The translations under genes and the position numbers were made by a program. Shown here piece by piece: positions 3,407 through 50,185 of a DNA stretch of 64,000 nucleotides. Within the stretch, counting starts at the first letter, position 1. The number at the start of each line of letters is the position of its first letter. The notes below the pieces were generated by a model. The model was not told the origin of the DNA and did no database searches. It was given only the letters and a program-made list of their open reading frames with translations. Source of the stretch: Streptosporangiales bacterium (GTDB taxonomy: Bacteria; Actinomycetota; Actinomycetes; Streptosporangiales; WHSR01); NCBI GenBank assembly GCA_009379995.1, contig WHSR01000006.1:41865-105864 (forward strand), in the 5' to 3' direction.

Positions 3407-4555
3407 TCAGCCGCCGCGGGAGGCGGCCTCGTCCGGCTCCTCGCTCGACTGGGGCCGCGCCGTGAGGATGAGGTACACACCCCTGGTCACCAGCGGCAGC
3501 ACGAAGACGATCAGGAACGCATACGCGAGGTAGGTGTACCCCTGCGACACCAGCGCGATGATCCCGATCCGGGAGAGCACGAAGGCCAGGACGAGAACGC
3601 CCACGATCCAGACGGTCCTGGCCCGAGGGGTCAGGCCGCGGCGGCCGAGGCCCGCGAGGGCGCTGTCCACCCGGTCGAGGAACGCGCGGATCATGGCGGC
3701 GGAGGTGTCGACGACGGCGTAGACCAGGACCACCGCGAAGAGCAGGCTCAGCCCGATGCCGCCGGTCCTTTCCAGCATGACCAGCCAAGGGATGGGCGCC
3801 TCCGTCACCCCCTCGTCGTAGAAGCTCTGCACCGCCAGATAGGTCAGTACGAACGGAATGGTAACGAAAACGCCCGACAGAATACCCGCCGTAATCGTTT
3901 CGCGTCGCTTCTGCTGACGGTCGAGGCAGAAGAGTACGGGCACGACGCTCGGAATGTTGTAGCCGACGTACACCAGGCCCGACACCAACGCGGCGGCAAC
4001 CGTCGGCGACGGCGATTGGGAAACGTCGCCGCTGGCGATGACGCCCGCCGCCTCGTCCCACCGCCGCACCAGGACGAAGATCGCGAGAACGATGATGCCG
4101 ACCGAGAACAGGATGCTGCCGAGCAGGTCGAACCCCTCGAGAATGCTCCGGCCGGAGAACAGCACGATGCCTATCGCGACCAGAACGCCTATGACGGCAA
4201 GCAGATAGGGCACATGAAAGGACCCGGAAAGTACCTCACCGACCGCCGAGGTCACGATTCCGGTGACCACGATCATGAAAACGATCCATATCAGATCGAA
4301 GAGCGGCCAAAGCGGGCCTTTGAGCTTCCGTACGTACTCGCGATAATTGTAGACCCGCAGAATACGGGCCAGTTCGTAGGCGATCGTGCACAGGACCGCG
4401 AACCCTACCAGCAAGACGACGATGGTCCAGATGCCCAGTGCACCGAGCTGGCCCGCGTACTCGACGACCTCCCGTCCCGTGCTGAAGCCTGGACCCACCA
4501 CCACGATCTGAAAGATCGCGGCCGGAAGCACGAACCTCTTGAAAGCGCCGGACAT
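3407..4555 (-). CDS. YkvI-like polytopic membrane protein (putative transporter)
   Basis: Internal ATG (cat at 4553-4555) of the 3407..5041 ORF. MSGAFKRFVLPAAIFQIVVVGPGFSTGREVVEY resembles the YkvI N-terminus (GAGFASGQE). About 10-11 hydrophobic helices. Confidence 0.65.
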   Translation of the reverse strand: MSGAFKRFVLPAAIFQIVVVGPGFSTGREVVEYAGQLGALGIWTIVVLLVGFAVLCTIAYELARILRVYNYREYVRKLKGPLWPLFDLIWIVFMIVVTGIVTSAVGEVLSGSFHVPYLLAVIGVLVAIGIVLFSGRSILEGFDLLGSILFSVGIIVLAIFVLVRRWDEAAGVIASGDVSQSPSPTVAAALVSGLVYVGYNIPSVVPVLFCLDRQQKRRETITAGILSGVFVTIPFVLTYLAVQSFYDEGVTEAPIPWLVMLERTGGIGLSLLFAVVLVYAVVDTSAAMIRAFLDRVDSALAGLGRRGLTPRARTVWIVGVLVLAFVLSRIGIIALVSQGYTYLAYAFLIVFVLPLVTRGVYLILTARPQSSEEPDEAASRGG

Positions 4556-4563
4556 CACGGGCC

Positions 4564-5903
4564 TCACACGATTCCCTCGGTCTTCATGCGCTCGAGCGCC
4601 GTGGCATGGGCCGCGACGATCTGGTCCAGCTCCGATTCGCCGTGAGCCGAACTCAGGAAGGCCAGGTGTACGGGCGAGGACAGGAACACACCCTCCCGCA
4701 GGAGAAGCGCCGCCAGCATCCTCGCCGCCACCTTGTCGCTGCCGTGCAGGTCGCGTACGTTCGCCGGCTTTGCGTCGGTGAAATGGAAGCCCCACAACGA
4801 TCCGGCCCCGGTGACGTGCGCCGAGATGCCGAGCCGGCTTACCAGCGCGGACAGCTCCGAACGGAGACGATCTCCGCGCGCCTCGAGCGTGGAGTAGATC
4901 TCGGGATTCTCCAGAAGAACGTCGAGCTGCGCGACTCCCGCGGCGGTGGTCATCGGGTTGGCGGCATGCGTGCCGCCCGCCACCACGGAAAGGCCATCGT
5001 CGCCGGCCAGCACCCTGTCCACGAGGTCCCCCCGCCCGCATACGGCTCCCACCGGAAGACCGCCACCCACGATCTTTCCGAAGACAGTCAGATCCGGCCG
5101 CACGCCGAGGAGGCCAGCCGCCCCTCCTGGCGCGAGCCGAAAGCCGGTGATGACCTCGTCAGCGATCAGCACGACGCCGCACTCCCGGCAGGCGTCGCCC
5201 ACGGCCTGGAGGAAGCGGCGCTCCGCGGGCAGGGCACCACCCCCGCCGAGGACGGGTTCCACGATGACGCAGGCGAGGTCCTCCGCGTGCTCCCGGATGA
5301 TCTCCGCCGCCCTGTCGCTGTTGAAGGGAAGCGTCACGACGGTGCCGGTGACCTCCGGCGGTACCCCGGCGCTGTCCGCGACGGCCGCGGGGCGATCGGC
5401 CGTGCCCCCCAGCTGTGTATAGCTGTGCAGCAAGAAGTCCTGCCCCCCGTGCCAGCCACCCTCGAACTTGGCGATCTTGCCCCGGCCCGTTGCGGCGCGG
5501 GCGAGGCGAAGCGCCGACAGGGTCGCCTCGGTCCGCTGGAAACGAAGATCACCCTCTCCGCCCCCGGCACGGAGGAAACGATGCGCCGGGCGAGCTCGTA
5601 CTCCCCCGTGCCCGGCGCTCCGAACTGGATGCCCCGGGTGAGCTGCTCGGCGATCGCGCGCTCCACCCGCTCGTGGCGGTGGCCGAGGATCAGCGGGCCG
5701 AATCCGAGGTTGCAGTCCAGGTACCGGCGGCCGTCCAGGTCATAGAGGTACGGGCCCTCGGCACGGACCGCGTACGTGGGCACCGGCCACCAGAAACGCG
5801 AACGGGTGGCCCCGCCCGGCACTACCTGACGAGCCTGCTCGTAGTGGGCGACGCTTTGCGGCAAGAGTTCGCGTATTTCCTTTTCCACCGGCTCCAGCAT
5901 CAT
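4564..5903 (-). pseudogene. Class-III aminotransferase (glutamate-1-semialdehyde aminomutase-like), split by a 1-nt frameshift near 5532
   Basis: The N-terminal ORF (5334..5921) ends ...GAERVIFVSSG. The expected continuation [40 protein letters not shown] is in the -1 frame and runs into ORF 4564..5433. ATG at 5903 has a GAGAGGA RBS; alternative GTG at 5921. Confidence 0.7.
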
Positions 5904-7481: not shown

Positions 7482-9286
7482 CACACCGCTTCCTTCTCCG
7501 CGTGGTCGGGCACGGGCCTGGACTCGGTGAGCACGACGTCACGGGTGAAGAACAGGTCGAGTATCCAGTCGAGTGCTACCCGAACCTTCTTCTCCAAGCC
7601 CGGCAGCTTGCCGAGGTACACACTGCGCCACAGCGCCCAGGCGACCAGCCCGGAGAACGGGCGGCCGCGGAGCTCCGCGGCGCCCTTCTGGTGGCCGAGC
7701 GCGACGAGCAGGCCGATGGTGCGGAACCGGAACGGCTTGACCGGCCGGCCGTCCAGCGCCGCGACGATATTGTCGGCGGCCACCTTGCCCTGCCGCAGGG
7801 CGTGCTGGGCGGTCGGCGGGTGGAACTGGCCCTGCGCCGCCACGTCGGGGATGGCCGCGCAGTCGCCGAGCGCCCACACGTTGGCCGATCCCTGTGCGCG
7901 GAGGTTCGGATCGACGGCGACCGCGCCGTTCCTGGCCCGCGCGATGGGAAGCGCGGCGACCAGCGGATTGGGCTGGTTACCCGCCGTCCACACCAGCGTG
8001 CGCGCCGGCAGCCGCTGCCCGTCGCCGAGCACCACCTCGTCCCCGGTCGCCTCGGCCACCCGCGCGGACAGGACGAACTCGATGCCCCGCCTCCGCAGAT
8101 CCGCCAACGAGTAGTCGGCGAGCTCCCGGCTGAGTTCGGGCAGGATGCGGTCTTGGGAGTGGACAAGCACGAATCGCAGCTGCGCCGCGTCGATCCGCGG
8201 GTAGTAGCGCCGCACGTCGTGCACCATGTCGAACAGCTCGGCGATCAGCTCGGCGCCGGCGAAACCACCGCCGGCCACCACGAACGTGAGCTGCCGGCGC
8301 TGCTCCGCCGGATCCGGCTCGACGTCGGCCCGCTCGAGCAGCCCGATGACGTGGTCGCGCAGCCGGGTCGCGTCCTCGAGCGTCTTCAACGCGAAGGAGT
8401 GCTCTGCCACCCCGGGAAGGCCGCGGTAGTTGGCGGTGGCGCCGAGCGCGAGCACGAGGTGGTCGTACCGCAGGGCCTCGGCAGCGAAGTTGTCACCCCG
8501 CCGCAGCCAGATCTCCTGCCGGTGCACGTCCACCGCCTCGACCCTCGCCCGGTGGAATACCGTGTGCGGGCACGACGCACGTACCGGCGCACTGATGTGC
8601 CGCGCGTGCAGCGCGCCCGCGGCGACCTCGGCCAGCATCGGCGTGAACAGCAGGTAGTTGCTGTCGCTGACGAGTGCCACCTCGACGTCGGAACGCCGGG
8701 CCAGCCGATGTTCCAGCGCTTGGGCGGTGCTGACCCCGGCGAAACCGCCGCCCAGGACGACGACACGACGCGGCGGCCGGCGGGGTCGCGGCTTGGCCGC
8801 CACCGGCCACGACCGGGCGAGCGCCGCAAGAACGTAGTGCGTACCGACACCGGTCAGCGCCCCGTACAGCATGCGGCCGACCAGGTACGGGAACGTGGCA
8901 TTCGCGTCGGCCAGTGACCAGGTCACCGCCTGACCGGTGAGCGCCGGAAGCAGCGTAAGCGACTCCGCCACCCACAGCAGCATGCCGAGCAGTACGCCGG
9001 TGCCGGCGGCCGCCGCGTGCCCGCGCGGCCGGTACCCGACGACGGCACCGATGACCGCGCCCATCAGCACGGCGAGGACGAGCGCCAAGCCCACTCCGGG
9101 GCTGTCCGGCCCGGCGCCGACGAAGCCCATGTCGCTCATGCCCTGCAATGCCTGGATCAGCACAACCACGAACCCGGCCGCCAGGCCGACCATCGCCCCG
9201 GCGGCTGCCAGCACCGATCGGGGCAACTCCGAACTTCGAGTCGGCTCGGTCACAGCGCCCGATTCCACCACAACTTCGCTACCCAC
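7481..9286 (-). CDS. ndh: Type-II NADH dehydrogenase (NDH-2) with an N-terminal four-helix membrane module
   Basis: RRVVVLGGGFAGVSTAQALE... and ...LTFVVAGGGFAGAELIAEL... are the two Rossmann GxGxxG motifs of NDH-2. Residues ~20-160 are homologous to the repeats of the downstream gene (ATFPYLVGRMLYGALTG). Confidence 0.8.
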   Translation of the reverse strand: MGSEVVVESGAVTEPTRSSELPRSVLAAAGAMVGLAAGFVVVLIQALQGMSDMGFVGAGPDSPGVGLALVLAVLMGAVIGAVVGYRPRGHAAAAGTGVLLGMLLWVAESLTLLPALTGQAVTWSLADANATFPYLVGRMLYGALTGVGTHYVLAALARSWPVAAKPRPRRPPRRVVVLGGGFAGVSTAQALEHRLARRSDVEVALVSDSNYLLFTPMLAEVAAGALHARHISAPVRASCPHTVFHRARVEAVDVHRQEIWLRRGDNFAAEALRYDHLVLALGATANYRGLPGVAEHSFALKTLEDATRLRDHVIGLLERADVEPDPAEQRRQLTFVVAGGGFAGAELIAELFDMVHDVRRYYPRIDAAQLRFVLVHSQDRILPELSRELADYSLADLRRRGIEFVLSARVAEATGDEVVLGDGQRLPARTLVWTAGNQPNPLVAALPIARARNGAVAVDPNLRAQGSANVWALGDCAAIPDVAAQGQFHPPTAQHALRQGKVAADNIVAALDGRPVKPFRFRTIGLLVALGHQKGAAELRGRPFSGLVAWALWRSVYLGKLPGLEKKVRVALDWILDLFFTRDVVLTESRPVPDHAEKEAV

Positions 9287-12923: not shown

Positions 12924-12975
12924 CCTCGCTCTTGTCCGTGGTCTTGAATTTCTGCAAGATCACGGGCAAGAGGGG
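12924..12975. repeat. Palindromic repeat family A, short form (copy A2)
   Basis: CTCTTGTCCGTGGTCTTG - AATTTCTG - CAAGATCACGGGCAAGAG. Same outer arms as A1/A4 with the centre deleted. Confidence 0.75.
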
Positions 12976-20896: not shown

Positions 20897-21898
20897 GTGG
20901 CTGAGGATTTCCCGGTCGTCGCCGAGGTCGTTCGGTCGGGATTCGTGGAGAGCCGGCACCACGGCGCGTACGTCGCGCTCGACGCGGACGGCGAGATCGC
21001 CGCCGCGGCCGGTCCGGTGGGTGCGCCGATGTTCCCGCGCTCGTCCAACAAGCCGCTGCAGGCCGCGGCCATGCTGGAGTGCGGGCTCCGGCTGGAGGGC
21101 GAGCTGCTCGCGCTGGCCGCGGGGAGCCACAGCGGGGAGGAGTTCCACCTGGCCGGGGTGCGCCGCATTCTGGGCGCCGCCGGCCTCGACGAGTCGGCGC
21201 TGGGCTGCCCGCCGGCCCTGCCGCTGGACGCCGACGCCGCCCGGTCGGCGGTGCGAGCCGGGCAAGATCCGCGTCCGGCCTTCATGAACTGCTCCGGCAA
21301 GCACGCCGCCATGCTGGCCACCTGCGTCGCGGCCGGCTGGCCGGCCTACTGGTCGGCCGGTTCGTACCGCGATCCGGATCATCCGCTTCAGGTCGCGATC
21401 CGGGCCACCATCGAACGGCTGGCCGGGGAACCGGTGGCCGCGGTGGGGGTGGACGGCTGTGGCGCGCCGCTGTTCGCGCTGACGCTCACCGGCCTCGCCC
21501 GGGCGTACCGGTCCGTCGTGCTCGCCGACCCGGATGGCACCGAGCGCCGGGTGGCCGACGCCATGCGGGCCCACCCGGCATGGTGCTCGGGGAGCCGGCG
21601 CGACGAGCGGACGCTCATGCGGGGTGTGCCGGGGCTGCTGATCAAGGGCGGAGCCGAGGGCGTCAAGGCGTTCGCGTTGCCCGACGGCCGGGCAGGCGCC
21701 GTCAAGATCGAGGACGGAGCGGCCCGGGCGAGCACGCCGGTGACGGTCGCCGTACTCCGGGCCCTCGGCGCCACGCACCTTCCTGGGGCGCCCTCGGCGC
21801 GGGCGGCCTTGGACGAGCTCGCGAGCGTCCCGGTGCTGGGCGGCGGCGAGCCCGTCGGCGAGGTACGTGCCGTGAGCGACACGCGCGAGGCTCAGTAG
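20897..21898 (+). CDS. Asparaginase-family protein (L-asparaginase II / PF06089-like)
   Basis: ...VVRSGFVESRHHGAYVALDADG...PRSSNKPLQAAAML...GSHSGEEFH...MNCSGKHAAMLA...GVDGCGAP... Start assigned to an in-frame GTG; exact start uncertain. Confidence 0.7.
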   Translation: MAEDFPVVAEVVRSGFVESRHHGAYVALDADGEIAAAAGPVGAPMFPRSSNKPLQAAAMLECGLRLEGELLALAAGSHSGEEFHLAGVRRILGAAGLDESALGCPPALPLDADAARSAVRAGQDPRPAFMNCSGKHAAMLATCVAAGWPAYWSAGSYRDPDHPLQVAIRATIERLAGEPVAAVGVDGCGAPLFALTLTGLARAYRSVVLADPDGTERRVADAMRAHPAWCSGSRRDERTLMRGVPGLLIKGGAEGVKAFALPDGRAGAVKIEDGAARASTPVTVAVLRALGATHLPGAPSARAALDELASVPVLGGGEPVGEVRAVSDTREAQ

Positions 21899-24594
21899 TC
21901 AACCCTCGGGCAGGGGTAGGAGCGACCCTGCTGCCCCCACGTCGTCTTGTCTTCCTCCCTCGAGACCTGCCCGCAATCCATCTCCACTGTGCCGGCACCG
22001 GGCGCCGAGTCGCTCGCCTCGAGGATGAGGACCCGTTTGTCCTTCGGTGCCCGGTAGGTTCGATCGAAGGCGATGTACCCGGTCTCGCCCTGAAGGTTGA
22101 CCTCTCCACCGCGCAGCTTCTCCGCAGCGACGGTCGGGTCGAAGTCGGGGTCGCGGCCACGGTCCGTGTATGCCCGATTGATCGCCGCGGCAGCCGTCCT
22201 GAGCGCGTCGTACCCGGCCGCCGCGTCGCTCTCGGGCTCCTGGCCGAACATCTGGCGGAACGCCGTCACGAACGGCGTTGCCGTGTTCCCCCCGGCGGAA
22301 ATCGGGTCGCTGAACGCGCCATAGTACAGGGTGAGGAACGGGTAGTCGCCGAGCCTGCTGTTCGGGTCTGCGACAAAGACGGTGAGCGCGCTTCCGCCAA
22401 GCACGGTGATCTGCTGCCCCTGGCATTCGGGCCGGTCCCTCATGCCGTACAGGAGAGCGGGAAACTGCTGCGCGCGACCCGCGAAATACACAAAGCCCTC
22501 GGCCTGATCGAGTGTGCCGCAGATGTCCGACGCGACATCGCTGGCCGGGTCCGACGAGTCCTCGCTGTACTCGATCTCGTCCAGGATGGCCTTGCGGCCG
22601 TGGGTCCTGGCATAGTCGGCCTTGAAATCGTTCCGCAGGTTCCTGCTGTAGTAGTCACCGGGATCGAAAACCACGACAGCACCGCTGCCGAGCTTGTGGT
22701 GCGCGAAAACGGCCATGGCGTCGGCGATCCGGTGGTTCCTCGGGGAAATTTGGAAGTAGTCCCTGGAGGCGGTCGAGACCGCGTCGCCGGTGACCGCGGA
22801 ACCGATGATCGGCAGCTGCACGTCCTGCTCGTGCAGGTATCGAATTGCGCGTATCGACTCGTTGCGGCTCTGTGAAATCCCGATGATGGCGCCGAGGGTA
22901 CGGTCGCTACGGGCCAGCTCGATGATCCGGTCCGCCGCCGTCTGCCAGTGGCCGAATCTATCACCCGGATTGGCGATCAAGAGCCGGATCCGCATCTTGT
23001 TGGGATCAAGCTGGGCGGCATTGTTCGCCTGCCGCTGGGCAAGGACCGCGCCACGAAGCTGCAGGAGGCTGCTCGGGCCTATGTGTCCAGGATCCGCGGG
23101 CAGGGTCAGCGGGGCGAAAAATACTACCGTTCGGTACGGGTTGTTACCCTCCTTGGACAGCCGGATGACCTCTTCGTTCTGCTTGTGGATCAACGCCTCG
23201 AGCGAGCGCAGCCGCCGCTCACCGGGGCGGTCCAGGGTGCACGAAGGGTCGCCGTTCGTGATACCCACCCGCTCCCTGGACGGCTGCAGGGAGGCATCAC
23301 CGGACGTCATGACGGTCTCGACGCGACAGTCCGCGCTCCCGGGCCACACGGGAACGGGTGCAATCCCTGCCCATTCGAGTATCGCGACCATCAGCACGGC
23401 CGCGGCCACCGCCGGGGCGAAGACGGCGACAACCGGGCGAGAATAGTCGCGCCTCCGGTTCGGCCTTGGCTCGAGCCAGTTCTCGTTCAGCCAATCCCTG
23501 ACGCCCTCATCCTGGGTCGCCTCGAGGCAAACGCCGTGGACAGGTCTGCTGCCCGACCGGCCCGGCGACCGCTCGACGGCCGCGCGGAGATCGTTTGCGA
23601 CTCGCCGATAATCGGTGTCACCGGGTCGTGGAGGATTGCGAGGGTTGAAGCCAACAGGAACCACGTACGAAGGCAGGCGGCCTGGGACAGGGATCGTCGC
23701 CAAGATCATCAGGGCCGATGTCCGCTGCCGCTCGAGGTCAAGGCGTCCGTAGGTATCTAGTAACCGGCGTGCCGGCGTGCCATCCTCGGCCGGGCCAGGG
23801 AGGAGCACGACAAACGACCACTCGCGGCGATGCCGATTCTTGGACAGCACGAACGGTCGCGTTGCCCTGTCGAGGTCCTTGAGCAAGGCCATCAGAAGGA
23901 TCCTCCGGACAACGGTCGGATCGAGACTGGCGCGATTGACGGCGACGCTCAGGAAATCCTTGGCCGGGCCCCTGACCACCGACGTGGCCCAGGACAGTCG
24001 TCTAGTTCTGGTCAGCCAGAGGCCATAGATCGCTCTTGGCAATTCCCGGACGAGCAACCCGATTGCCCTCTGGTGCAGCTTGTCCCCCGCCAGCATCCCC
24101 GGACCAGCCAGTTCCGCAAGCCATTTCAGCGGTGCGTGCCGCTCGAAGAGCTGGTAATAGAGGTATTCCACCATCTCTTTGCGCCTGACGGCCAGGTCAG
24201 GCCGCTTCGGCCGGCGGGGCTCGTCCTTTGCCAGGGCGGCGCGGCAGGTGCGGAACAGCGGCAGCCGTAGCTCGCCGGAGCCCGCAGGCATCGTGTCCTG
24301 AAACCTGTCGGCGATGTCATCGAGCATGTCCAGCGCCATCAAGTCCGACGTGGCGCCGGGGGCACTGGGCCGCGTGAAGTAGCGGTCCTCGACGAGCACG
24401 TGCGGCACAAGGTTTTCGCCCGAAGGGCCGATGAGCCGCTCCCGGTACCCGGCGACCACCCTCGTGATCTCTTCGCCGGGCTCACCGGTCAGTACCACCG
24501 TTGGACCCGATCCGTGGGACGGTCGCGAGGCTGCGAAATCGTCGAGGACCGGAATGAGACCATCGAAGCCACGCAGCGGTGGGATAGAGGTCAT
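21892..24594 (-). CDS. Orphan membrane receptor-like protein: cytoplasmic degenerate P-loop-like domain + TM helix + extracytoplasmic type-1 periplasmic-binding (LivJ/ANF-receptor-like) domain
   Basis: ATG at 24594 with GGAGG 6 nt upstream (the ORF track starts at 24681). N-terminal region has PTVVLTGEPGEEITRV (Walker-A-like but no GK[ST]) and WSFVVLLPG. TM helix is PVVAVFAPAVAAAVLMVAILEW. The C-terminal ~430 aa show a PBP1 pattern (LGAIIGISQSRNESIRAIRYLHEQDVQLPIIGSAVTGD..., YFQISPRN, GAVVVFDPGDYYSRNLRNDF). Confidence 0.7.
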   Translation of the reverse strand: MTSIPPLRGFDGLIPVLDDFAASRPSHGSGPTVVLTGEPGEEITRVVAGYRERLIGPSGENLVPHVLVEDRYFTRPSAPGATSDLMALDMLDDIADRFQDTMPAGSGELRLPLFRTCRAALAKDEPRRPKRPDLAVRRKEMVEYLYYQLFERHAPLKWLAELAGPGMLAGDKLHQRAIGLLVRELPRAIYGLWLTRTRRLSWATSVVRGPAKDFLSVAVNRASLDPTVVRRILLMALLKDLDRATRPFVLSKNRHRREWSFVVLLPGPAEDGTPARRLLDTYGRLDLERQRTSALMILATIPVPGRLPSYVVPVGFNPRNPPRPGDTDYRRVANDLRAAVERSPGRSGSRPVHGVCLEATQDEGVRDWLNENWLEPRPNRRRDYSRPVVAVFAPAVAAAVLMVAILEWAGIAPVPVWPGSADCRVETVMTSGDASLQPSRERVGITNGDPSCTLDRPGERRLRSLEALIHKQNEEVIRLSKEGNNPYRTVVFFAPLTLPADPGHIGPSSLLQLRGAVLAQRQANNAAQLDPNKMRIRLLIANPGDRFGHWQTAADRIIELARSDRTLGAIIGISQSRNESIRAIRYLHEQDVQLPIIGSAVTGDAVSTASRDYFQISPRNHRIADAMAVFAHHKLGSGAVVVFDPGDYYSRNLRNDFKADYARTHGRKAILDEIEYSEDSSDPASDVASDICGTLDQAEGFVYFAGRAQQFPALLYGMRDRPECQGQQITVLGGSALTVFVADPNSRLGDYPFLTLYYGAFSDPISAGGNTATPFVTAFRQMFGQEPESDAAAGYDALRTAAAAINRAYTDRGRDPDFDPTVAAEKLRGGEVNLQGETGYIAFDRTYRAPKDKRVLILEASDSAPGAGTVEMDCGQVSREEDKTTWGQQGRSYPCPRVDY

Positions 24595-24960
24595 TTCTAC
24601 CTCCAGAAGCGCCTGTGTTCTGGGGAAGCCCGAGAGGAAGGGAATTCTACAAGTAGAGCATCTCGATTTTCGTAGATTCACCCGCCTTGGCGGTACTCGA
24701 CCGCTAGGTGAATTTCCTCCGCGCGACTCCTCTTATCCGCTTTAGGGAAAGCTGCGGTGCAGGTCAGCCCTTGCCTCGGCGAGGCCGGGGGCGTTCATCG
24801 CCACCGGCAAGTAAATCAGGGGTCGCCGGGACCGGTCCCCAGACGCGACATCGACTGTATGACCCGGACCGTCGCCGGTCAGGGCCACTTGCGCGGGACC
24901 GCGACGATCTCCGAGAGTTCGTCCCGACCAGCCGACAGCGTGACGCACCTCACGACCGTC

Positions 24961-28040: not shown

Positions 28041-28767
28041 GGACGGCAACGGGCGTACCCACCGACTGGAACTCCAAGACCAGACGGTGCGGGATTGGGA
28101 TGCGGTGGTCCTCGACGCAACGCCCGACGGTGTGGTGCTGGACCGGTCGGCATTTTATCCGGGCGGCGGTGGCCAGCCACCCGATCACGGAGTCCTGCTG
28201 TGGGGCGGCGTACAGACGCGTATCGTCGGCGCCAGCAAGGGCGATGAGTTCTACCTGATCCCCGTCGAGGGCGACCCGCTGCCGCCGCCCGGCACCGCCG
28301 TACGCGGCGCGATCGAGGACGAGCGGCGTACGGCGCTGATGCGTACCCACTCCGGCCTGCACGTGCTGTCCGGAGTGGTGTTCCGCGACTTCGGGGCGTT
28401 GGTGACCGGGGGGAACATGGAGCCGTACGTGGCCCGGATGGACTTCAACCTGCCGGAGGTCCCGCCCGGCTTCAAGGAGGCGGTGGAGGAGGCCTGCAAC
28501 TCGGAGGTGGCCGAGGACCGCCGCATCGACATCAAGGTGCTGCCCCGCGAGGAGGCCTTCCAGATCCCGGACATCATCCGCACCGCGCAGAACCTGATCC
28601 CACCCGAGGTCGCCGACGTCCGGATCGTCGACATCGTCGGCCTGGACACGCAGGCCGACGGGGGCACGCACGTCGCGTCGACCAAGCAGATCGGGCGTAT
28701 CCAGGTCGCCAAGATCGAGAACAAGGGCAAGGGGTTCCGCCGGCTGCGCATCCGGGTGACCGACTGA
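28039..28767 (+). CDS. AlaX-type alanyl-tRNA editing protein
   Basis: ...VVLDRSAFYPGGGGQPPDHG..., RRTALMRTHSGLHVL and DGGTHV (zinc/editing-site motifs of the tRNA_SAD family). TAGGCT lies 7 nt upstream of the ATG at 28039. Confidence 0.8.
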   Translation: MDGNGRTHRLELQDQTVRDWDAVVLDATPDGVVLDRSAFYPGGGGQPPDHGVLLWGGVQTRIVGASKGDEFYLIPVEGDPLPPPGTAVRGAIEDERRTALMRTHSGLHVLSGVVFRDFGALVTGGNMEPYVARMDFNLPEVPPGFKEAVEEACNSEVAEDRRIDIKVLPREEAFQIPDIIRTAQNLIPPEVADVRIVDIVGLDTQADGGTHVASTKQIGRIQVAKIENKGKGFRRLRIRVTD

Positions 28768-28850
28768 CGGTTCTGACGCCGAGATCTATGTTGTGGGGGC
28801 CATTTTGTCCGATTCGGACCCCCGCAACATAGATCTCGGCGTCAGAACCG
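28768..28850. repeat. Palindromic repeat family B (copy B1, extended 32-bp arms)
   Basis: CGGTTCTGACGCCGAGATCTATGTTGTGGGGG ... CCCCCGCAACATAGATCTCGGCGTCAGAACCG, 31/32 complementary, 19-nt centre. Confidence 0.9.
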
Positions 28851-30086: not shown

Positions 30087-30159
30087 GCCGGCGTAGCTCA
30101 ACTGGCAGAGCAGGTGCCTTGTAAGCACCAGGTTGGGGGTTCGAGTCCTCTCGCCGGCT
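30087..30159 (+). tRNA. tRNA-Thr (anticodon TGT)
   Basis: Cloverleaf read by hand. Acceptor GCCGGCG/CGCCGGC; D-arm GCTC..GAGC; anticodon stem GGTGC/GCACC with loop CTTGTAA; T-loop GGGGG-TTCGAGT-CCTCT. No encoded CCA. Confidence 0.85.
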
Positions 30160-30195
30160 CTCGCCGACTCCGCGTACCGATCGGCTGGGTGCCCC

Positions 30196-31922: not shown

Positions 31923-32435
31923 GTGGACGAGGAGCGGACCGACGTGCGCATCGAGGCGCGGATCGAGCCGGCCGGCGTGGCGGACGCTGGGGAGATCTTG
32001 ACCCTGCAGCGCGCTGGGTACGTCGGCGAGGCCCAGCTGTACGGCGACCCGTTCCTCCCGCCGCTGGTGGAGTCGCTGGCCCAGATACGGGCCGCCATCG
32101 AGAACACCGCGTCCGGCGGAGACATCGTGCTCAAGGCGTGCCTGCACGGGCGCGTCGTCGGCGCGGCGCGCGCCAAGCAGGTCGGCCGTACCGGCTCGGT
32201 GTTCCGGCTCGTGGTCGCGCCCGACGTTCAGGGCCGCGGCATCGGCACCGCCCTGCTGCGGGCCGTCGAGGAGGCGTTCCGCGGCCGAGTCGAGGAGCTC
32301 GTTCTGTTCACCGGAGACCGCAGCGACGGGAGCCTCCGCCTCTGCCGCCGGTTCGGGTACACCGAGATCCGCCGCGAGCGGATCGCGCCGCACCGAGGAC
32401 TGGTGCACATGCGCAAGCCGCTCGCGGACCCATAG
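31923..32435 (+). CDS. GNAT-family N-acetyltransferase
   Basis: Acetyl-CoA motif RLVVAPDVQGRGIGTALLRAVE and C-terminal RFGYTE. Confidence 0.85.
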   Translation: MDEERTDVRIEARIEPAGVADAGEILTLQRAGYVGEAQLYGDPFLPPLVESLAQIRAAIENTASGGDIVLKACLHGRVVGAARAKQVGRTGSVFRLVVAPDVQGRGIGTALLRAVEEAFRGRVEELVLFTGDRSDGSLRLCRRFGYTEIRRERIAPHRGLVHMRKPLADP

Positions 32436-32442
32436 CGCATAG

Positions 32443-32507
32443 CGCCGAGATCTATGTTATGGGTCCGTTTTGTCCTGTTTCGTACCCCCACAACATAGAT
32501 CTCGGCG
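32443..32507. repeat. Palindromic repeat family B (copy B2)
   Basis: CGCCGAGATCTATGTTATGGGT ... ACCCCCACAACATAGATCTCGGCG. Lies between convergent stops (32435 and 32523). Confidence 0.85.
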
Positions 32508-32522: not shown

Positions 32523-33485
32523 TCAGCCGCCAAGGGTGGCTAGCTCCTCCGCGTCCTCGCGCTCGAAGGTCTCCTCGAGCTGCTCCGGGCTCGCGTCCAC
32601 GTCGATCTTCTCGACCGGGACGCCGCGGGCGGACTCGATCGCGTTCAGCCGCCGGCTCAGCCGGTCGGTGGCGTACCGCACGGTCAGGTCCGTGGGTATG
32701 CCGAACGGCGCGTCCGGGTAGCCGGGACGCCGGTACTCGACAAGGGCCACCACGTGCGGGGTCAGCTCCGCGATGCGCTCCTGCACGATCTGCCAGTTCG
32801 CGTCGTCGGCCGCGACGTGCCGGCGGCAGGTGAACGTACCCCAGGCCATGTGCCGGCGCTCGTCGTCGCCGATGAGCTTGATGAGCTGTCGCATGCCGGG
32901 GAAGATGCGGTGCTCGGTGCAGATGCGGTTCCAGGAGTAGTAGCCGGTGAGCGCGAGCGAGCCCTCGATGACGTGGTTGTACGTGACAGCAGCGCGCACC
33001 TGGTTGGCCGGGCTCGGGTCGGAGTCCAGCGACTGCAGCGACGCGGGCAGCTCCTGGTAGAACAGCACGCGGTAGCCCGGGTTCTCCTCGATCCACTCGT
33101 GCAGGTCGTCGCGCACCCCGAGGGTGTCCAGCCAGCGCCGGAATGCCAGGGTGTGCTTGGCCTCCTCGAAGCAGAACTGGGTGAGGTACAGCTCGTCGGC
33201 GAACCGGCCCTCGGCGGCCATCGCCCGGATGAACGGCTGGATGTCCTCGGTGACCGCCTCCTCGCCGGCGATGAACGCGGTACACAGGCCGAGCGCGGCA
33301 CCCTGCCTGATCTCGTCGAGGCCGTGCCAGTCCTCGGCGTCACGGGTGAAGTCGAGTTCGGCAGGATCCCAGAACTTCCCGTTTCCCTTCACGAACAGCC
33401 GCAACGGGAAGGAATCCCAGTTCAAGCCGCCCCGCCGGATGGAGTTGAATCCGTCCCGCGCGGGCGTACCTTGTAGCACCGACAT
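32523..33485 (-). CDS. R2-like ligand-binding oxidase (ribonucleotide reductase R2 fold)
   Basis: Internal ATG (33485). [33 protein letters not shown] and [11 protein letters not shown] are the ferritin-like metal-binding helices of R2lox proteins. Confidence 0.85.
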
Positions 33486-37097: not shown

Positions 37098-37169
37098 CTG
37101 CCTTGGTCGTGATCTTGCAGAAATTCAACTCGGGCCGATTCAAATTTCTGCAAGATCACGGCCAAAGGG
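37098..37169. repeat. Palindromic repeat family A, long form (copy A4)
   Basis: CCTTGGTCGTGATCTTGCAGAAATT-CAACTCGGGCCGATTCA-AATTTCTGCAAGATCACGGCCAAAGG. Differs from A1 at a handful of positions. Confidence 0.9.
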
Positions 37170-38428: not shown

Positions 38429-38478
38429 CACGTGATCTTGCAGAAACTGCCCACTTCGGCAAGATCATGGGCAAGGTG
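38429..38478. repeat. Palindromic repeat family A, diverged copy (A5)
   Basis: CGTGATCTTGCAGAAA ... GCAAGATCATGGGCAAGG. The outer left arm has diverged. Lies in a divergent promoter region. Confidence 0.55.
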
Positions 38479-39068: not shown

Positions 39069-39452
39069 ATGGACGGCGTGAACAGGCTCGGCTACCTCGA
39101 ACGAACCGTGATGAACGTGCTGTGGGAGCGCGGGGAGCCACTCACCGCGCGCGACGTGGGCCGTGCCCTCGCCGGCGATCGCGACCTCGCGCACACGACG
39201 GTGATGACGGTCCTCGACCGGCTGGCGAAGAAGGGGCTGCTGGCGCGCCAGCGGGACGGTCGGGCATGGCGCTACCGGCCGGCGGCCAGTCGGGAGACGT
39301 ACGTGGCCGAGCTGATGCTGAATGCTCTCGACCAGACGAGGGACAGAGACGCGGCCCTCGCTCGCTTCGCCCGTTCGGTCACCGGCGAGGAGGCGCGGGT
39401 GCTACGCAGCGCGCTGGACGAGATCGAGCGCGGGAGAGGACGCGGGGGGTGA
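39069..39452 (+). CDS. blaI: BlaI/MecI/CopY-family transcriptional repressor
   Basis: LGYLERTVMNVLWERGEPLTARDVGRAL...AHTTVMTVLDRLAKKGLLARQRDGRAWRY is the penicillinase-repressor winged helix. Confidence 0.9.
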   Translation: MDGVNRLGYLERTVMNVLWERGEPLTARDVGRALAGDRDLAHTTVMTVLDRLAKKGLLARQRDGRAWRYRPAASRETYVAELMLNALDQTRDRDAALARFARSVTGEEARVLRSALDEIERGRGRGG

Positions 39453-39456
39453 CACC

Positions 39457-40374
39457 GTGATCACCGCCGCGCTGCTCGCCGCGCTGTCCCTGGTATGCGT
39501 GGCCGCCGCCACCGCGCTGGCGCCGGCCAGATGGCCTCGGCGGGGGCCGAGCTCCGGGATCGTGCTCTGGCAGGCGATCGGACTCGCTTGGGGACTGGCC
39601 ATGGTCGGCGCGGCGCTGGCGGTTGCCGTCGCCCCGTACGGCCGAGGACTGGCGTTCGGGCTCGTCGCGCTCGTCCGCGGGGACGTTCCCGTCGCGCTCG
39701 GCCCGCTGCGCATCGTGGCGCTCGCGGGCGGGACGGCGCTCTTCGGCCTGCTGGTCAGCGCGCTCCTCGCCTCGCTCGTGCAGGTCGGCCTGGCGCGGCG
39801 GCGGCACCGTACGCTGCTCGCGCTGCTGGCCGACGGGCACCCCGGGCTGCCCGGAACGCTCGTCGTCGACCACCCGGCCGCGGCCGCGTACTGCGTGCCG
39901 GGGGTCCGGGCGCGTGTCGTGGTCAGCGCCGGGGCCCTCCGACTGCTCGCCCGCGACGAGCTGCAGGCGGTACTGGCACACGAGCGCGCGCACGCACGGG
40001 AACGGCACGACCTTGTGCTGCTTCCGTTCACCTCGCTGCGCTGGATCTTCCCGCGGTCCCGGATCGTACGGAACGCGATCGACGCGGTCTCGCTCCTGGT
40101 GGAGATGCGGGCCGACGACCGGGCGCTGTCGGAGCAGCCTCGTCGGCTGCTCGCCACCGCGCTGCTGCGGTTCGGCGCGTCCGAGCCGCGGGCCACTCCG
40201 TCCGGCACGCTCGGCATCGCCTTTCCCGCGGTATCCCAGGATCCGGTGGTCGTCCGCGCGCTGCGGTTGATCGGGCCCAGTCCGGCGCTGCCCCGGCACA
40301 TCCAGGTCATCACCTGGGGTACCGCCGGTGCGCTGGCGGCGCTCCCGCTGGCGCTGGCCCTGCTCCCGCTCTGA
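39457..40374 (+). CDS. M56-family (BlaR1-like) membrane metallopeptidase, no sensor domain
   Basis: GTG 5 nt after the blaI stop. 4 TM helices. Zinc motif LAHERAHARERHD (HExxH). Confidence 0.8.
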   Translation: MITAALLAALSLVCVAAATALAPARWPRRGPSSGIVLWQAIGLAWGLAMVGAALAVAVAPYGRGLAFGLVALVRGDVPVALGPLRIVALAGGTALFGLLVSALLASLVQVGLARRRHRTLLALLADGHPGLPGTLVVDHPAAAAYCVPGVRARVVVSAGALRLLARDELQAVLAHERAHARERHDLVLLPFTSLRWIFPRSRIVRNAIDAVSLLVEMRADDRALSEQPRRLLATALLRFGASEPRATPSGTLGIAFPAVSQDPVVVRALRLIGPSPALPRHIQVITWGTAGALAALPLALALLPL

Positions 40375-40468
40375 CGGTCCCTTGGGCAACCTGCCGTGCC
40401 GCGACGGCGTCATTAGGACTGCAGCGAGTCCGCTGCAGTCACCGTCGATGGAGATTTGGGGTACTCCG

Positions 40469-42174
40469 ATGCGTTCCAACCTCAAGCACGTCGCCGCGTT
40501 ATTCGCCGCCACGCTCGCGGTGACCCTCCCGGCCGCCATGGTCTCTCTCGCCACGACGCCGGCTGCCGCAAGCGCCCCACCGCGGTCCTGCCCGCCCCGG
40601 TACCGGTGGGCGAGATCAAGGAAGGGATGACCGGCTCGGGCCTGACCGTAAGCAAGGGCACCACGCCGGAGCCGTTCCAGGTGACGGTTCAGGGCGTCCT
40701 CGAAGACGGGATCGCGCCCGGCGTGGACATGATCGTCGTCGAGGCGGACTCGCCGACGTTGGATCGGGTCGGCGGGATCTGGGCCGGCATGTCCGGCTCG
40801 CCGGTCTACGCCGACGACGGCCGCATCATCGGCGCGGTCGCGTACGGGTTCTCCCTCGGCCCGTCGAAGATCGGCGGCATCACGCCGGCCGAGGAGATGC
40901 TCGAGGTCCTGGACGACCCGGCGCAGGTTCAGGCCACGCGGGCCAAGGAGAAGCTGGCCCTCCCGGAGGCGATGCAGCGTGAACTCGTCGCCAGCGGGGC
41001 GGCGAGCGAACAGCAGGTCGAACAAGGTCTGGGGCGACTTCCGTTGCCGTTGGGCGTCTCTGGCGCGAACGAGCAGCGTCTGCAGGGCATGCAGGAGGAG
41101 CTGGCGAGGCGCGGGCTGAACGTCCGCGTCTACCGGGCCTCCGCCGCCGGTGCGCGATCGCCGGTGCCGCCGTCGGCACGACGACCATGGTGTGTTCCGG
41201 GCTGGCGCTCGCGTTTGGCCATCCGTTCAACCAGCTCGGCCCGGTCGCGATGAGCGCGCACACCGCCGAGGCGATCACCGTGGTCGACGACCCGGCTGGC
41301 ACCCCGTTCAAGCTCGCGAACATCGGCGGGGTCGCCGGGACCCTCGACCAGGATCGGCTGACCGCCGTCCGGGCCCGGCTCGACGAGTCACCGACGGCAA
41401 CCCCCATCACCTCGCACGTCTCCTCGGGGGACCGGTCGCGGACGGGCACCTGCTCGCCAACCTGGACCTGGTCTTCGACAGGTTTGTCGTGCCCGGCACC
41501 TCGACGGTCAGCTGGACGGTGACCGGGCGGACCGCGAGCGGGCAGCAGTGGACGCTCGACCGGACCAACCGCTATGCCTCGTCCGATGACATCACGTTCG
41601 CGGCGTCCGGGGAGGTCACCCAGCAGCTCGCAACGATCACCACCAACCGGTTCGAGGCGGTCGAGATCACCGACGTTGATCTCACCGCATCGGTCGATCC
41701 CGACTTCGCGCAGTTCACCGTCGACACCGTGTACGCCAGAGCGGACGGCGACTGGGTGGAGGTCGGCCCGGACACGCCGATCGAGGCGACCGCCGGGCAG
41801 GCCCTCGGCCTTCGGGTCGACCTGACGGCGTACCGGCGCCCACCCGTACCGTCGAGTTCCAGATCGACGTGCCCGAGAACCGCGCGGGCGGTACCGGACA
41901 GCTGACCGTCGCCGGCGGGCTCGTCGACTACCCCGGCCCGGATCCGTTCTGCGTGCTCCAACCGTCGTTCTGCGCACGTGAGGATCCGGGTGGCGAGTCC
42001 GTGCCGGACCTGGTGGAGAGGCTGCAGGACGAGCCGAGGAACGACGATCTGCTCGTCACACTGGACCTCGACCCGGTCGACGGCGGCCCGAGTCAACCCG
42101 TCACGATCGACAGTTCCAAGCGGCTCGACCAGGTTGTCACCGGGGAGCAGCTGATCCCGGTCACCGTCAGCTGA
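40469..42174 (+). pseudogene. SpoIVB-like S55 serine peptidase, interrupted by four frameshifts
   Basis: The signal peptide (MRSNLKHVAALFAATLAVTLPAAMV...), the catalytic segment VGGIWAGMSGSPVYADDGRIIGAVAYGF, then ...GTTTMVCSGLALAFGHPF..., then the C-terminal parts lie in 5 successive frames. Shifts are near 40575, 41150, 41425 and 41840. Confidence 0.65.
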
Positions 42175-45335: not shown

Positions 45336-45402
45336 CCGCCGAGATCTATGTTGTGGGGCAAGTAATCGGGCAAAACGACCCCCGCAACATAGATCTCGGC
45401 GG
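45336..45402. repeat. Palindromic repeat family B (copy B3)
   Basis: CCGCCGAGATCTATGTTGTGGGG ... CCCCCGCAACATAGATCTCGGCGG. Starts 4 nt after the stop at 45332. Confidence 0.9.
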
Positions 45403-45463: not shown

Positions 45464-46681
45464 GTGACCACATCGTGGCTGCCGGTACCCGACGGGACTG
45501 ACTTCCCGGTGCAGAACCTTCCGTACGGTGTCTTCTCCCGGCGGGGCGAGCTGCCCCGCATCGGGGTGGCGATCGGGGAGTACGTGCTCGACCTCGCCGG
45601 CCTCGCCGCCGCCGGGCTCGTGCAGGATCGCCGGTGGTTCGCGGCCGGCTCGCTCAACGCGTTCATGGTCGCCGGGCGGCCGGCCTGGCAGGCCACCCGA
45701 TCCCGGCTGGTCGAGCTGCTGACGGAGGAGAGGCACCGCGAGGAGGTCGAGCCGCACCTGGTGCCGCAGGCGGAGGCCGAGCTGCACCTGCCGGTGGAGG
45801 TGAGCGACTACGTCGACTTCTACTCCTCCCTCGAGCACGCGTCCAACCTGGGACGGATCCTCCGGCCCGATGCCGAGCCGCTGCTGCCCAACTGGCGCCA
45901 CCTGCCCGTCGCGTACCACGGCCGGGCCGGCACGGTGGTGGTGTCCGGCACGCAGATCGCCCGGCCGTACGGGCAGCGGAGGGCACCTGACGCGCAGACC
46001 CCGACCTTCGGCCCGTCGACCCGGCTGGACATCGAGGCCGAGGTCGGTTTCGTGGTGGGTGTGCCTTCCTCGCTGGGTTCCCGGATCGGCACCGGGTCGT
46101 TTCGCGAGCACGTATTCGGTTTCGTCCTTGTCAACGACTGGAGCGCCCGCGACATCCAGGCCTGGGAGTACCAGCCGCTCGGTCCGTTCCTCGGCAAGTC
46201 GTTCGCCACGTCGATCTCGCCCTGGGTGGTGCCTGTCGACGCACTCGAGGCGGCCCGGGTGCAGCCGCCGGCCCAAGACCCGGAGCCTCTGCCGTACCTG
46301 CAGGTGGCCGAGGCGTGGGGGCTCGACCTGACCCTCGAGGTCGAGCTGAACGGGCACGTCGTCGCCCGGCCGCCGTTCGCCGGCATGTACTGGACCCCGC
46401 CGCAGCAGCTCGCGCACGCCACCGTGAACGGCGCCGCGGTACGGGCCGGCGACCTCTTCGCCTCGGGTACCGTCTCCGGGCCCAACCCCGAGCAGTACGG
46501 CTCCCTCATCGAACTCACCTGGAACGGGGAAAGGCCGCTGATCCTGCCGAACGGCTCCGCCCGGACCTTCCTGGAGGACGGCGACGTGGTGACGCTCCGG
46601 GCGAGCGCACCACAGGCCGAAGACGTCCGTATCGGCTTCGGCGAGGTGACCGGCACTATCGTCCCGGCGAGGCCGGGGTGA
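45464..46681 (+). CDS. fahA: Fumarylacetoacetase
   Basis: FPVQNLPYGVF...DFYSSLEHASNLG...LPVAYHGRAGTVVVSGT...DIEAEVGFVVG...NDWSARDIQAWEY matches FAH over its full length. Confidence 0.9.
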   Translation: MTTSWLPVPDGTDFPVQNLPYGVFSRRGELPRIGVAIGEYVLDLAGLAAAGLVQDRRWFAAGSLNAFMVAGRPAWQATRSRLVELLTEERHREEVEPHLVPQAEAELHLPVEVSDYVDFYSSLEHASNLGRILRPDAEPLLPNWRHLPVAYHGRAGTVVVSGTQIARPYGQRRAPDAQTPTFGPSTRLDIEAEVGFVVGVPSSLGSRIGTGSFREHVFGFVLVNDWSARDIQAWEYQPLGPFLGKSFATSISPWVVPVDALEAARVQPPAQDPEPLPYLQVAEAWGLDLTLEVELNGHVVARPPFAGMYWTPPQQLAHATVNGAAVRAGDLFASGTVSGPNPEQYGSLIELTWNGERPLILPNGSARTFLEDGDVVTLRASAPQAEDVRIGFGEVTGTIVPARPG

Positions 46682-48619: not shown

Positions 48620-49102
48620 TTAGGAAGCGAGGAGCTCGTCGAGAAGGGCCTCAGCCTTGTCCTCGTTGGTCTTCTCCGCCAACGCGAGCTCGCTGACCAG
48701 GATCTGCCGGGCCTTGGCGAGCATCCGCTTCTCGCCGGCGGACAAACCCCGCACCTTGTCGCGTCGCCACAGGTCACGGACGACTTCGGCCACCTTGTTG
48801 ACGTCGCCCGAGGCGAGCTTCTCCAGGTTCGCCTTGTATCGGCGAGACCAGTTCGTGGGCTCCTCGGTGTGCGGTGCGCGGAGCACCTCGAACACCCTCT
48901 CGAGACCTTCCTGGCCCACGACGTCGCGAACCCCGACGATCTCGGCGTTCTCCGCGGGAACCCGTACGGTCAGATCGCCCTTGTCGACCTTCAGGACTAG
49001 ATAGGTTTTGTCTTCACCTTTGATGGTGCGAGTCTCGATGGCTTCGATACGAGCAGCCCCATGATGGGGGTAGACAACGGTGTCGCCGACCTTGAAAGTC
49101 AT
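48620..49102 (-). CDS. carD: CarD-family RNA-polymerase-binding transcription regulator
   Basis: [39 protein letters not shown]...NWSRRYKAN... matches actinobacterial CarD throughout. Confidence 0.95.
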
Positions 49103-49378
49103 GTGACAAGTACCCCTTCCGCTGGGCTTCAGGATACCACGTCTGGGCCTCTCACCGTAGCGCCAGAAAGGACCAAATGCGCAGGTCACATGGCGTTTAC
49201 GGTCTTGACAAAGCACGAAGTTCGTGCAAGGGAGGCCGGACTTGTGGCCGCGTTTCCGTCGCCGGCCGCACTCATCGGAAGTGTTTCACCGCACCGCTCG
49301 GCGAACCGGACACATGGGCGCATACTGAAGATACAGGCTCCGGAACGTGGCAGTACAACCCAGAACGGGAGGTACCGC

Positions 49379-50068
49379 GTGGGGCTCAAGGGTGGCCGGG
49401 GCGATGACGAGGACTGCCTGCCGCCGGTCGACGTTGTCGTCCCCAACGATGCCCGCGAACTGGAGGCGGATGTCCGGGCGTACCACCGCGAGCTGCGACG
49501 ACGGCACAGGCGGCAACGCTGGACACGGCTGGCTCGCGGGCTGCGCCTACACGGCATCACCCTCCCGCTCGCCCTCGTCGCGCTCCTGCTCGTCGGGCTG
49601 AGTACCGCCCTCATGACGCTGCTCGGGCCACGTCCGACGTCCCGTCCGTCGCCGGCCGCACTGGCCAACCGGCCGCCGGCCGCGCCGGGCAAGGTCGGCG
49701 GCCTGCTCCCGGACACCGCGGTGGTAGTTGGCGAGGAGCGGGAGCGTACGAGGCAACTGCGCCCCGCGGTCGTCGCGCTGATCCCCTGGGGCTGCCGGTG
49801 CGATCGGGCGGCCGACGAGCTGTATCGACAGGCGCGGGCGTTCTCGCTGCCGGTCTACTTCGTGGCGAGCCGCCGCCCGGTTGACGAGCTGCGGCCGCTC
49901 ATCGGCACGGCGGGCCACGGGCTGGCGGTTCCGGTACACGACGGCCCGGGCACGCTGGAGTCGGCGTACCACGCCTCCGGCCTCACCGCGGTCCTCGTCC
50001 GCCGAGATCTATGTTGCGGGGGAGTCGAATCGGACAAATCGACCCCACAACATAGATCTCGCCGGTGA
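49379..50068 (+). CDS. Hypothetical single-pass membrane protein
   Basis: GGGAGG RBS before a GTG. TM helix ITLPLALVALLLVGLSTALMTLL. High GC3. The 3' end reads through repeat B4 and stops just after it. Confidence 0.5.
   Translation: MGLKGGRGDDEDCLPPVDVVVPNDARELEADVRAYHRELRRRHRRQRWTRLARGLRLHGITLPLALVALLLVGLSTALMTLLGPRPTSRPSPAALANRPPAAPGKVGGLLPDTAVVVGEERERTRQLRPAVVALIPWGCRCDRAADELYRQARAFSLPVYFVASRRPVDELRPLIGTAGHGLAVPVHDGPGTLESAYHASGLTAVLVRRDLCCGGVESDKSTPQHRSRR
49999..50065. repeat. Palindromic repeat family B (copy B4)
   Basis: CCGCCGAGATCTATGTTGCGGGGG ... CCCCACAACATAGATCTCGCCGG. Followed by a 12-nt tandem TCTCGCCGGTGA x2 plus a variant (50057-50092). Confidence 0.9.
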
Positions 50069-50185
50069 TCTCGCCGGTGATCCCGCCGGTCGTGGGCCGG
50101 CGGTTTCTGGAGCTACCCTCCGGTAACACTGACGGGTAGCGTTGGAGGTGCAGAGCAAGGGGCGCCGAAAAACGGAGTCACCCAA

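Follow-up and report, generated by a model that had tools for sequence, protein, structure and literature searches.

Four copies of one palindromic sequence stand at the ends of unrelated genes in the DNA analysed here (the window, meaning the whole stretch of 64,000 nucleotides). The question raised by this locus is what kind of element these copies represent and how they came to lie at the ends of genes.

Architecture of the Repeat Family

The repeat, termed family B, was confirmed as a real observation: it is a hairpin-forming 63-nt repeat at the 3' ends of unrelated genes. The initial annotation had described four palindromic copies with arms of about 21 bp around a short centre, unexplained by any gene call, and this description holds. 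All four copies (B1 to B4; Table 1) are present, and their layout could be refined to cores of exactly 63 nt, in which two inverted 21-nt arms flank a 21-nt centre. Matches to the arm 13-mer GAGATCTATGTTG with ≤2 mismatches numbered 8 in the window compared to 0.28 expected, a count that 0 of 100 shuffles reached, and these eight are the two arms of each of the four elements. The two-arm pattern of the family can be written as GAGATCTATGTTG-N(20-50)-CAACATAGATCTC. Neither solo arms nor extra copies were found in the 64 kb window in a search with ≤6 mismatches. An inverted-repeat finder gave arms of 32 nt for B1 (97% complementary, 19 nt between them), 21 nt for B2 (95%), 23 nt for B3 (96%) and 23 nt for B4 (91%). 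The GC content of the cores was 0.51–0.57 vs. ~0.70 for the window, which stays at ~70% along its whole length.

Each centre carries a version of the motif TTTTGTCCGATTCG, which is exact in B1 and contains an indel in B2 (both on the plus strand), with one mismatch in B4 and three mismatches in B3 (both on the minus strand). Two copies thus lie in each orientation, in agreement with the earlier claim that the centre core occurs either way round. The sample is small, with four copies visible.

Table 1. Coordinates of the family B elements and of the features associated with them in the window.
Feature	Position	Strand	Remark
B1 core (21-nt arm, centre, arm)	28778-28840	+	Centre motif on + strand
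B2 core	32444-32506	+	Nearly fills an 87-nt convergent spacer
B3 core	45338-45400	-	Centre motif on - strand
B4 core	50001-50063	-	Centre motif on - strand; inserted in a conserved membrane-protein gene, at its 3' end
B1-encoded DUF4032 C-terminal tail TPRSMLRGSESDKMAPTT and TAG stop	28786-28842	-	From reading frame and homologue alignment
B1 left 10-bp arm extension CGGTTCTGAC	28768-28777	.	Inverted copy of DUF4032 codons 28841-28850; 10/10 complementary
B1 right 10-bp arm extension	28841-28850	-	Native DUF4032 coding, GCG GTT CTG AC, the conserved A-V-L
B4-encoded tail LCCGGVESDKSTPQHRSRR and TGA	50009-50068	+	Replaces conserved GVVTGVVRD...LEP.L.PL.RSP of orthologues
12-bp x3 tandem array GATCTCGCCGGT	50055-50090	+	Outer right arm of B4 forms the first unit
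7-bp x2 tandem duplication CATAGCG	32431-32445	+	Abuts the left end of B2; creates a second TAG

Conservation, Folding and Boundaries of the Elements

The arms and the centre have diverged to very different degrees. Pairwise arm divergence between copies was 6% (16/252 positions compared), whereas the centres differed by 23–41% even with gapped alignment, and variable columns made up 5/42 of the arms and 16/21 of the centre (Fisher p = 6.5e-7). The five variable arm columns all lacked a compensating change on the opposite arm, which indicates that the arm sequence, and not merely its pairing, has been conserved. As far as these alignments allow, such conservation points to recognition of the arms by a protein. 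Among the substitutions, one B2 arm has A in place of G, and the outer right arm of B4 carries a G-to-C change. In three of the four copies, one arm has T where the other has C at the same position (28794/28824, 45354/45384 and 50017/50047), and the stem contains a G-T or A-C mismatch there. In B3 the T and C are the other way round with respect to the centre, which could have flipped between its arms.

In the RNA folding check proposed earlier, all four copies were predicted to form long hairpins on both strands, with energies of −34 to −71 kcal/mol and z scores of −5.5 to −12. The B1 hairpin was the most stable (−69 to −71 kcal/mol, z about −12). The copies offered no strand preference or G-U evidence for structure at the RNA level, and the better-folding strand varied among them, tracking neither gene direction nor centre orientation. 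Intrinsic (Rho-independent) terminators consist of a short GC-rich stem, a 3–8 nt loop and a U-tract. The stems of family B are 21–32 bp, no T/U run follows any of the four copies, and a consensus scan of the window had no match at the elements; an identity as intrinsic terminators was rejected. At the curated gathering score, Rfam assigned no family to the elements, and permissive Rfam scans returned sub-threshold miRNA-precursor look-alikes, as generic long hairpins do. The only Rfam/ARAGORN match in the window was a tRNA-Thr (anticodon TGT) at 30087–30160, on the strand opposite to the DUF4032 gene and ~80 nt upstream of its start.

The boundaries shared by the copies showed no copy-specific direct repeat of the kind left by target-site duplication. 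Candidate direct repeats were self-complementary strings inside the arms only (TA, GATC, AGATCT, CG) and are uninformative. A TA-flanked Tc1/IS630-type MITE with a shorter TIR was considered and rejected, as its supposed flanks, GCCGAGATC, would be identical at four unrelated sites. DNA-uptake-sequence pairs were also rejected, since the arms stand at a constant 21 nt from each other and the copies share a centre, and a CRISPR identity was rejected on the features of the elements.

Probable Insertion of B4 into a Conserved Gene

The copy that says most about the origin of the family is B4, which is read through by the ORF at 49061–50068. The protein encoded there (gene X, or geneX) has four orthologues at 58–67% identity (P0122-P0125) and four remoter homologues, and all eight continue as ...ASGLTA-LVRRD-GVVTGVVRD..LEP.L.PL.RSP. 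The window protein matches them up to LVRRD and then ends in LCCGGVESDKSTPQHRSRR*, the divergence falling exactly at the element boundary, so that 19 element-encoded residues stand in place of the conserved last ~27. No remnant of the native 84-nt tail could be detected downstream of B4 above shuffles.

The comparison with empty sites that had been suggested earlier was possible in part. No B element was found at the geneX loci of L017 (an 80-kb ENA contig), L018 and L019, and the spacer between the DUF2637 and FAA-hydrolase genes, occupied by B3 in the window, is empty in L019; these organisms are 58–70% identical in protein, not sister strains, and their loci are not nucleotide-level empty sites. 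The local gene order FAA hydrolase, IspF, CarD, geneX is common to the window, L017 and L019. B4 lies at a synteny break, as its downstream neighbours differ from those in L017. The orthologue tails, the empty loci, the lack of a native-tail remnant and the synteny break together form the strongest evidence that B4 arrived secondarily. Relative to orthologues at 58–70% protein identity, the alignments indicate that B4 is a derived insertion, and the same evidence speaks against the element being there for the benefit of geneX.

Beyond B4 (50066–50185), the window goes on to encode a 640-aa acyl-CoA dehydrogenase on the plus strand, and L017 (5246–5266) has a convergent chalcone-synthase-like gene. 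A PPDK-MerR-hydrolase block lies in opposite orientation in the window vs. L017.

Gene Context of B1, B2 and B3

B1 is located between an AlaX-like gene (plus strand, stop at 28765–28767) and a DUF4032 gene on the minus strand, the reading frame of which runs through the element and stops at a TAG in the far arm. In an alignment of the DUF4032 protein with 11 homologues, conservation ends at ...RPDE-AVL, with A386 and L388 invariant in 12 homologues, and the final 18 residues of the window protein are encoded by B1. This alignment also qualifies the earlier description of B1 as having 32-bp arms with 31 of 32 positions complementary. The figure agrees with the 97% given by the finder; the outer 10 bp of each arm are nevertheless secondary, being DUF4032 codons on one side and an inverted copy of them on the other. 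Judged by the alignment, these extra 10 bp per arm cannot be family sequence. One possibility is that a 20-bp palindrome was already present and received the element at its centre. Another is later growth of the arms through fold-back template switching, a process known from quasi-palindrome correction.

B2 lies between a GNAT gene, which ends at 32435, and a convergent ribonucleotide-reductase-small-chain-like gene (stop at 32523–32525). B3 begins 3 nt past the stop of the DUF2637 gene and ~60 nt before the start of the FAA hydrolase gene. Two of the copies lie between convergent genes. The initial annotation had emphasized that the copies abut stop codons. The plus-strand ORF ends at 28767, 32435 and 45332 do fall 1–10, 7 and 3 nt before B1, B2 and B3, and the read-through of B4 holds. 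The abutment itself results from insertion at the 3' ends of genes, which are tightly packed in this genome. In B1 and B4, two of the four cases, the element encodes a protein tail and supplies the stop, or the stop follows 1 nt after.

Source Lineage and Distribution

The gene content of the window was investigated by comparing 60 ORFs, picked by third-position GC, with Pfam. They encode housekeeping functions, including CysS, IspF, CarD, PPDK, thiolase, AlaX-like, DUF4032, FAA hydrolase and P450 proteins, and no transposase, integrase or Y1 transposase was found among the 60. Three large ORFs on the minus strand (3407–5041, 39379–41025 and 21892–24681) have a lower third-position GC (0.75–0.80) than their neighbours and no or weak Pfam matches, those of the 929-aa ORF at 21892–24681 being weak matches to periplasmic-binding proteins. 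Among 5.8 billion proteins, the well-conserved DUF4032 protein of the window forms a singleton cluster, and its best homologues, 61–63% identical, come from Streptosporangiales and Acidothermus-type MAGs. The singleton status and homologues of only 61–63% identity suggest that the source is a poorly sampled, deep-branching, uncultured actinobacterium.

The both-arm pattern had 0 matches in 185,579 GTDB species genomes. Scans for one arm in GTDB genomes and in JGI metagenomes gave three matches each and no further copy. These matches were attributed to chance, as they were lone arms in unrelated coding DNA of Bacteroidota, Proteobacteria or Elusimicrobia-type contigs. The B arm had 0 matches in IMG/VR; seven single-arm matches there to the 17-mer of a second family of the window, family A, lay in low-GC contigs and were likewise set aside as chance. 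B1 had no blastn match among 72,556 plasmids (PLSDB). The concatenated six-frame peptides of family B, a search chosen to reach ENA and Logan assemblies beyond the DNA scans, had no match among the 5.8 billion proteins, and a full-text literature search for the arm sequences returned unrelated PCR primers only. Family B is known so far from the present contig only. Having matched nothing in the collections or papers searched, it is, on this showing, lineage-specific.

Family A and Palindromes of Related Organisms

Family A (arms GGCCGTGATCTTGCAGAAATT) has copies at 1229–1303, 37103–37165 and 60594–60644, also at gene 3' ends; the last of these is internally deleted and has longer outer arms. 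Single family A arms occur at 12947–12963 and 38432–38468, all just after gene 3' ends, and the pair at 38432–38468 forms a short degenerate palindrome. The initial annotation had held the two families to be unrelated apart from a shared GATCT core. In statistical terms this is approximately correct: the local alignment score of A vs. B did not exceed that of a null preserving the palindromes (p about 0.12). The families do also share GCCGNGATCT at the outer arm, and the centre of the second A copy (A2) shares CCGATTC. Common descent of A and B is a hypothesis, not shown by these alignments. The density of two hairpin families, earlier regarded as unusual, is typical of a genome with MITE/REP-type expansions.

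Comparable palindromes were found in relatives. On L017, two adjacent A-like palindromes (1926–1977 and 1990–2040, arms GTGATCATGCAGAA) lie between convergent FAA hydrolase and P450 genes, the first giving the FAA hydrolase its ending ARDHAET plus TAA and the second providing the TGA stop of the P450 gene. The same two genes overlap by 26 nt in the window (46656–46681), without an element. On L020, a 66-bp palindrome of another family (7690–7755, arms CGTTGATCATGGGCAAG.TGCG) lies 12 nt past the DUF4032 stop, the same kind of site as that of B1, and is directly followed by a 9-bp x5 tandem array, GCGGAGGGC (7754–7805). In all the families from the window, L017 and L020, the outer end is GC-rich and an [A/T]GATC[A/T] core follows a few bases further in. 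Like family B, the A, L017 and L020 palindromes place this core 5–9 nt in, have an AT-richer inner arm and a ~17–22 nt centre, and occupy gene 3' ends or convergent junctions, where they supply tails or stops; the sequences of the inner arm and centre differ from those of B.

Comparison with Known Elements

Prokaryotic MITEs are short, multi-copy and AT-rich, with TIRs of 4–30 bp and a stable stem-loop, and are found mostly in the 3' regions of ORFs (PMC10969869). Family B agrees with most of this description. Like the Correia/NEMIS elements of Neisseria, ERIC and QMITE2 of Coxiella, it is short (four 63-nt copies, under the <500 bp limit), multi-copy, non-coding and AT-rich vs. its genome. 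Its terminal inverted repeats of 21–23 bp, 91–96% complementary, lie in the 4–30 bp range, and the transcript would form a stable stem-loop. MITEs resemble B further in their preference for the 3' regions of ORFs, where they occasionally alter protein ends (PMC10969869). B differs from MITEs in being far shorter than most, at 63 bp almost all arm, and in having no visible target-site duplication, no known parent IS and no similarity in the collections searched. The flanking direct repeats expected of MITEs, at least in young copies, are lacking in B.

REPINs consist of two inverted REP-like sequences around a variable spacer (PMC3337134, PMC3116915). The likeness to B is close, with conserved inverted short sequences, a less conserved spacer, one long hairpin and no target duplication. 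REPs proper are imperfect palindromes with a GTAG or CGTC end tag, and flanking ORFs can take their TAG stop codons from REP ends (PMC3733652). The B arm GCCGAGATCTATGTTGYGGGG is self-complementary in AGATCT only and has no GTAG or CGTC at its ends, so that B departs from REPINs and REPs in its arms as well as in its actinobacterial host and the lack of a RAYT gene in the window. A third group, the Rickettsia palindromic elements (RPEs), are 100–150 bp long and located in-frame inside genes. B shares with them the property of palindromic repeats that lie inside protein-coding genes and are translated; its 63 nt correspond to 21 codons, and two of three frames are open. B4 and B1 replace C-terminal tails, however, and add no internal segment. 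By its features, family B is MITE/REPIN-like, a resemblance that falls short of established membership in either family.

Origin of the Elements and Competing Explanations

We consider it probable, at about 65%, that family B represents a palindromic mobile element of MITE/REPIN type that is lineage-specific and non-autonomous, being mobilised in trans and tolerated at gene 3' ends. A transposase or recombinase encoded elsewhere in the genome would recognise the arm sequence, and the 63-bp unit would insert in either orientation and survive where it is least harmful, namely right at gene 3' termini and in short intergenic spacers. There it could replace the last residues of a protein and supply a stop codon. 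Once transcribed, it may fold into an RNA duplex of 21–32 bp that serves as a barrier at the 3' end or as a substrate of RNase III, and as a DNA hairpin or cruciform it may promote local slippage and arm extension. We infer transposition as the origin of the copies, a trans-acting enzyme of this kind as their mobiliser, and these downstream effects on RNA and DNA.

Support for the mobile reading comes from four near-identical copies at unrelated loci in both orientations, from their AT-rich composition and conserved arms vs. diverged centre, and from the derived state of B4 together with the element-encoded tails of B1 and B4. It is strengthened by the element-free geneX 3' ends of L017-L019 and DUF2637/FAA-hydrolase spacer of L019, by the GATC-core palindromes at gene 3' ends in L020 and L017, and by the long hairpins of all copies. 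Together these features match the MITE definition (PMC10969869), and the donation of stops is known from REPs (PMC3733652). It is weakened by the lack of target-site duplication and of a transposase, integrase or Y1 gene among the 60 ORFs, by the 58–70% protein identity of the organisms that provide the empty sites, and by the arm conservation, which a host protein that binds the arms could explain equally well. With four copies visible and none in GTDB, JGI, IMG/VR or the 5.8 billion proteins, spread of the family cannot be demonstrated.

Several other explanations draw on the same evidence. The elements might belong to a true REPIN-RAYT system, in which a single-copy domesticated Y1 (IS200/IS605-like) transposase acts on a single-stranded hairpin of REP-like arms without target duplication. 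The two conserved inverted 21-mers around a less conserved spacer, the long hairpin and the lack of target-site duplication would all suit such a system, and A-like families in a relative with geneX and DUF4032 61–64% identical suggest long persistence. The arms are not imperfect palindromes beyond AGATCT, however, and lack the GTAG/CGTC terminal tag of REPs (PMC3733652). The window also has no Y1_Tnp gene. A system of this type is considered unlikely. REPIN/RAYT systems have been described mainly in Gammaproteobacteria.

An origin by host selection, with a bidirectional U-tract-independent terminator or a stabiliser of mRNA 3' ends being duplicated by recombination or conversion, would explain why all four B copies and those of family A are found at the 3' ends of genes, two of them between convergent genes, and would account for the very stable folds predicted on both strands; terminator-like structures borne by MITEs have been discussed (PMC10969869). 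Yet the elements have no U-tract or terminator-scan match, ribosomes must translate the whole hairpin in B1 and B4, and B4 destroys a conserved protein tail. Nor would pure hairpin function need an arm sequence conserved without compensatory change or the partly conserved AT-rich centre motif, and we regard this origin, too, as improbable. The strong conservation of the arms relative to the centre, and the recurrence of the [A/T]GATC[A/T] core in the arms of all related families, could instead mark sites for a host DNA-binding protein (a nucleoid organiser or regulator) or an attC-/dif-like site-specific recombinase. We regard such sites as very unlikely; gene 3' ends and coding tails are unsuited to operators. 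Integron attC sites have R''/R' core sites (RYYYAAC ... GTTRRRY) at their ends and lie in a cassette array beside intI. The ends of B are GCCGAG/CTCGGC, its flanking genes are housekeeping genes 4–13 kb apart rather than cassettes, and there is no integrase in the window; an attC identity was rejected. Chance similarity or an assembly artefact has a negligible probability. The contig was probably assembled from a metagenome (its protein cluster has a single member, found on one contig of 114,911 bp), but the arm matches are far above expectation, centres differ among the four copies, each of which is flanked by unique sequence with genes, and an artefact would not yield 63-nt units with copy-specific substitutions.

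Taken as a mobile element, family B is of a well-known kind of small non-coding jumping DNA; its interest is modest, and the current view of bacterial repeats is not overturned. It adds MITE/REPIN-like hairpins with no match in the collections and papers searched, from a deep-branching uncultured actinobacterium, and gives clean examples of elements that rewrite protein C-termini and donate stop codons. For annotation, it is advisable to regard gene ends beside B-type elements as derived from the element. Conservation of the 21-bp arms leads one to expect a specific trans-acting protein, and the GATC-core palindromes at the same sites in relatives hint at a broader class.

Junctions and a Possible Wider Class

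The junction of B4 suggests how a site might be chosen. The orthologues read CTCGTCCGCCG[C/G]GAC where the window has CTCGTCCGCCGAGAT, and the outer 8–9 nt of the element coincide with the native Arg-Arg-Asp codons, using A/T-ending codons that are rare in the genome. Such microhomology would arise by chance in ~3 of 1,000 cases, a rough estimate for a single case. Speculatively, B, A and the GATC-core palindromes of relatives may form one clade-wide class of hairpins in uncultured Acidothermus/Streptosporangiales-like actinobacteria, read by an unrecognised enzyme at their [A/T]GATC[A/T] arms, an idea that we hold to be quite unlikely. Sites would then be picked by microhomology with the element ends, as in the match of the native CCGCCG[C/G]GAC at B4 to CCGCCGAGAT, and flanks would be grown or remodelled by fold-back copying, giving the 10-bp inverted flank copy of B1 and the arrays at B2, B4 and L020. 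If true, this would amount to miniature mobile DNA with a new mechanism, systematically rewriting the 3' ends of genes. The B4 microhomology, the B1 inverted flank copy and the clade-wide GATC-core design, with one or a few cases each, are the only hints of a new mechanism.

Tandem duplications at the ends of B4 and B2 may reflect replication slippage provoked by the hairpins. The chance that two of eight B ends touch a tandem array was estimated at about p = 0.03, given ~60 small arrays in the window, so that an excess over chance is suggestive only. Including the L020 palindrome (9 bp x5), tandem duplications touch element ends in three places, the others being B4 (12 bp x3) and B2 (7 bp x2).
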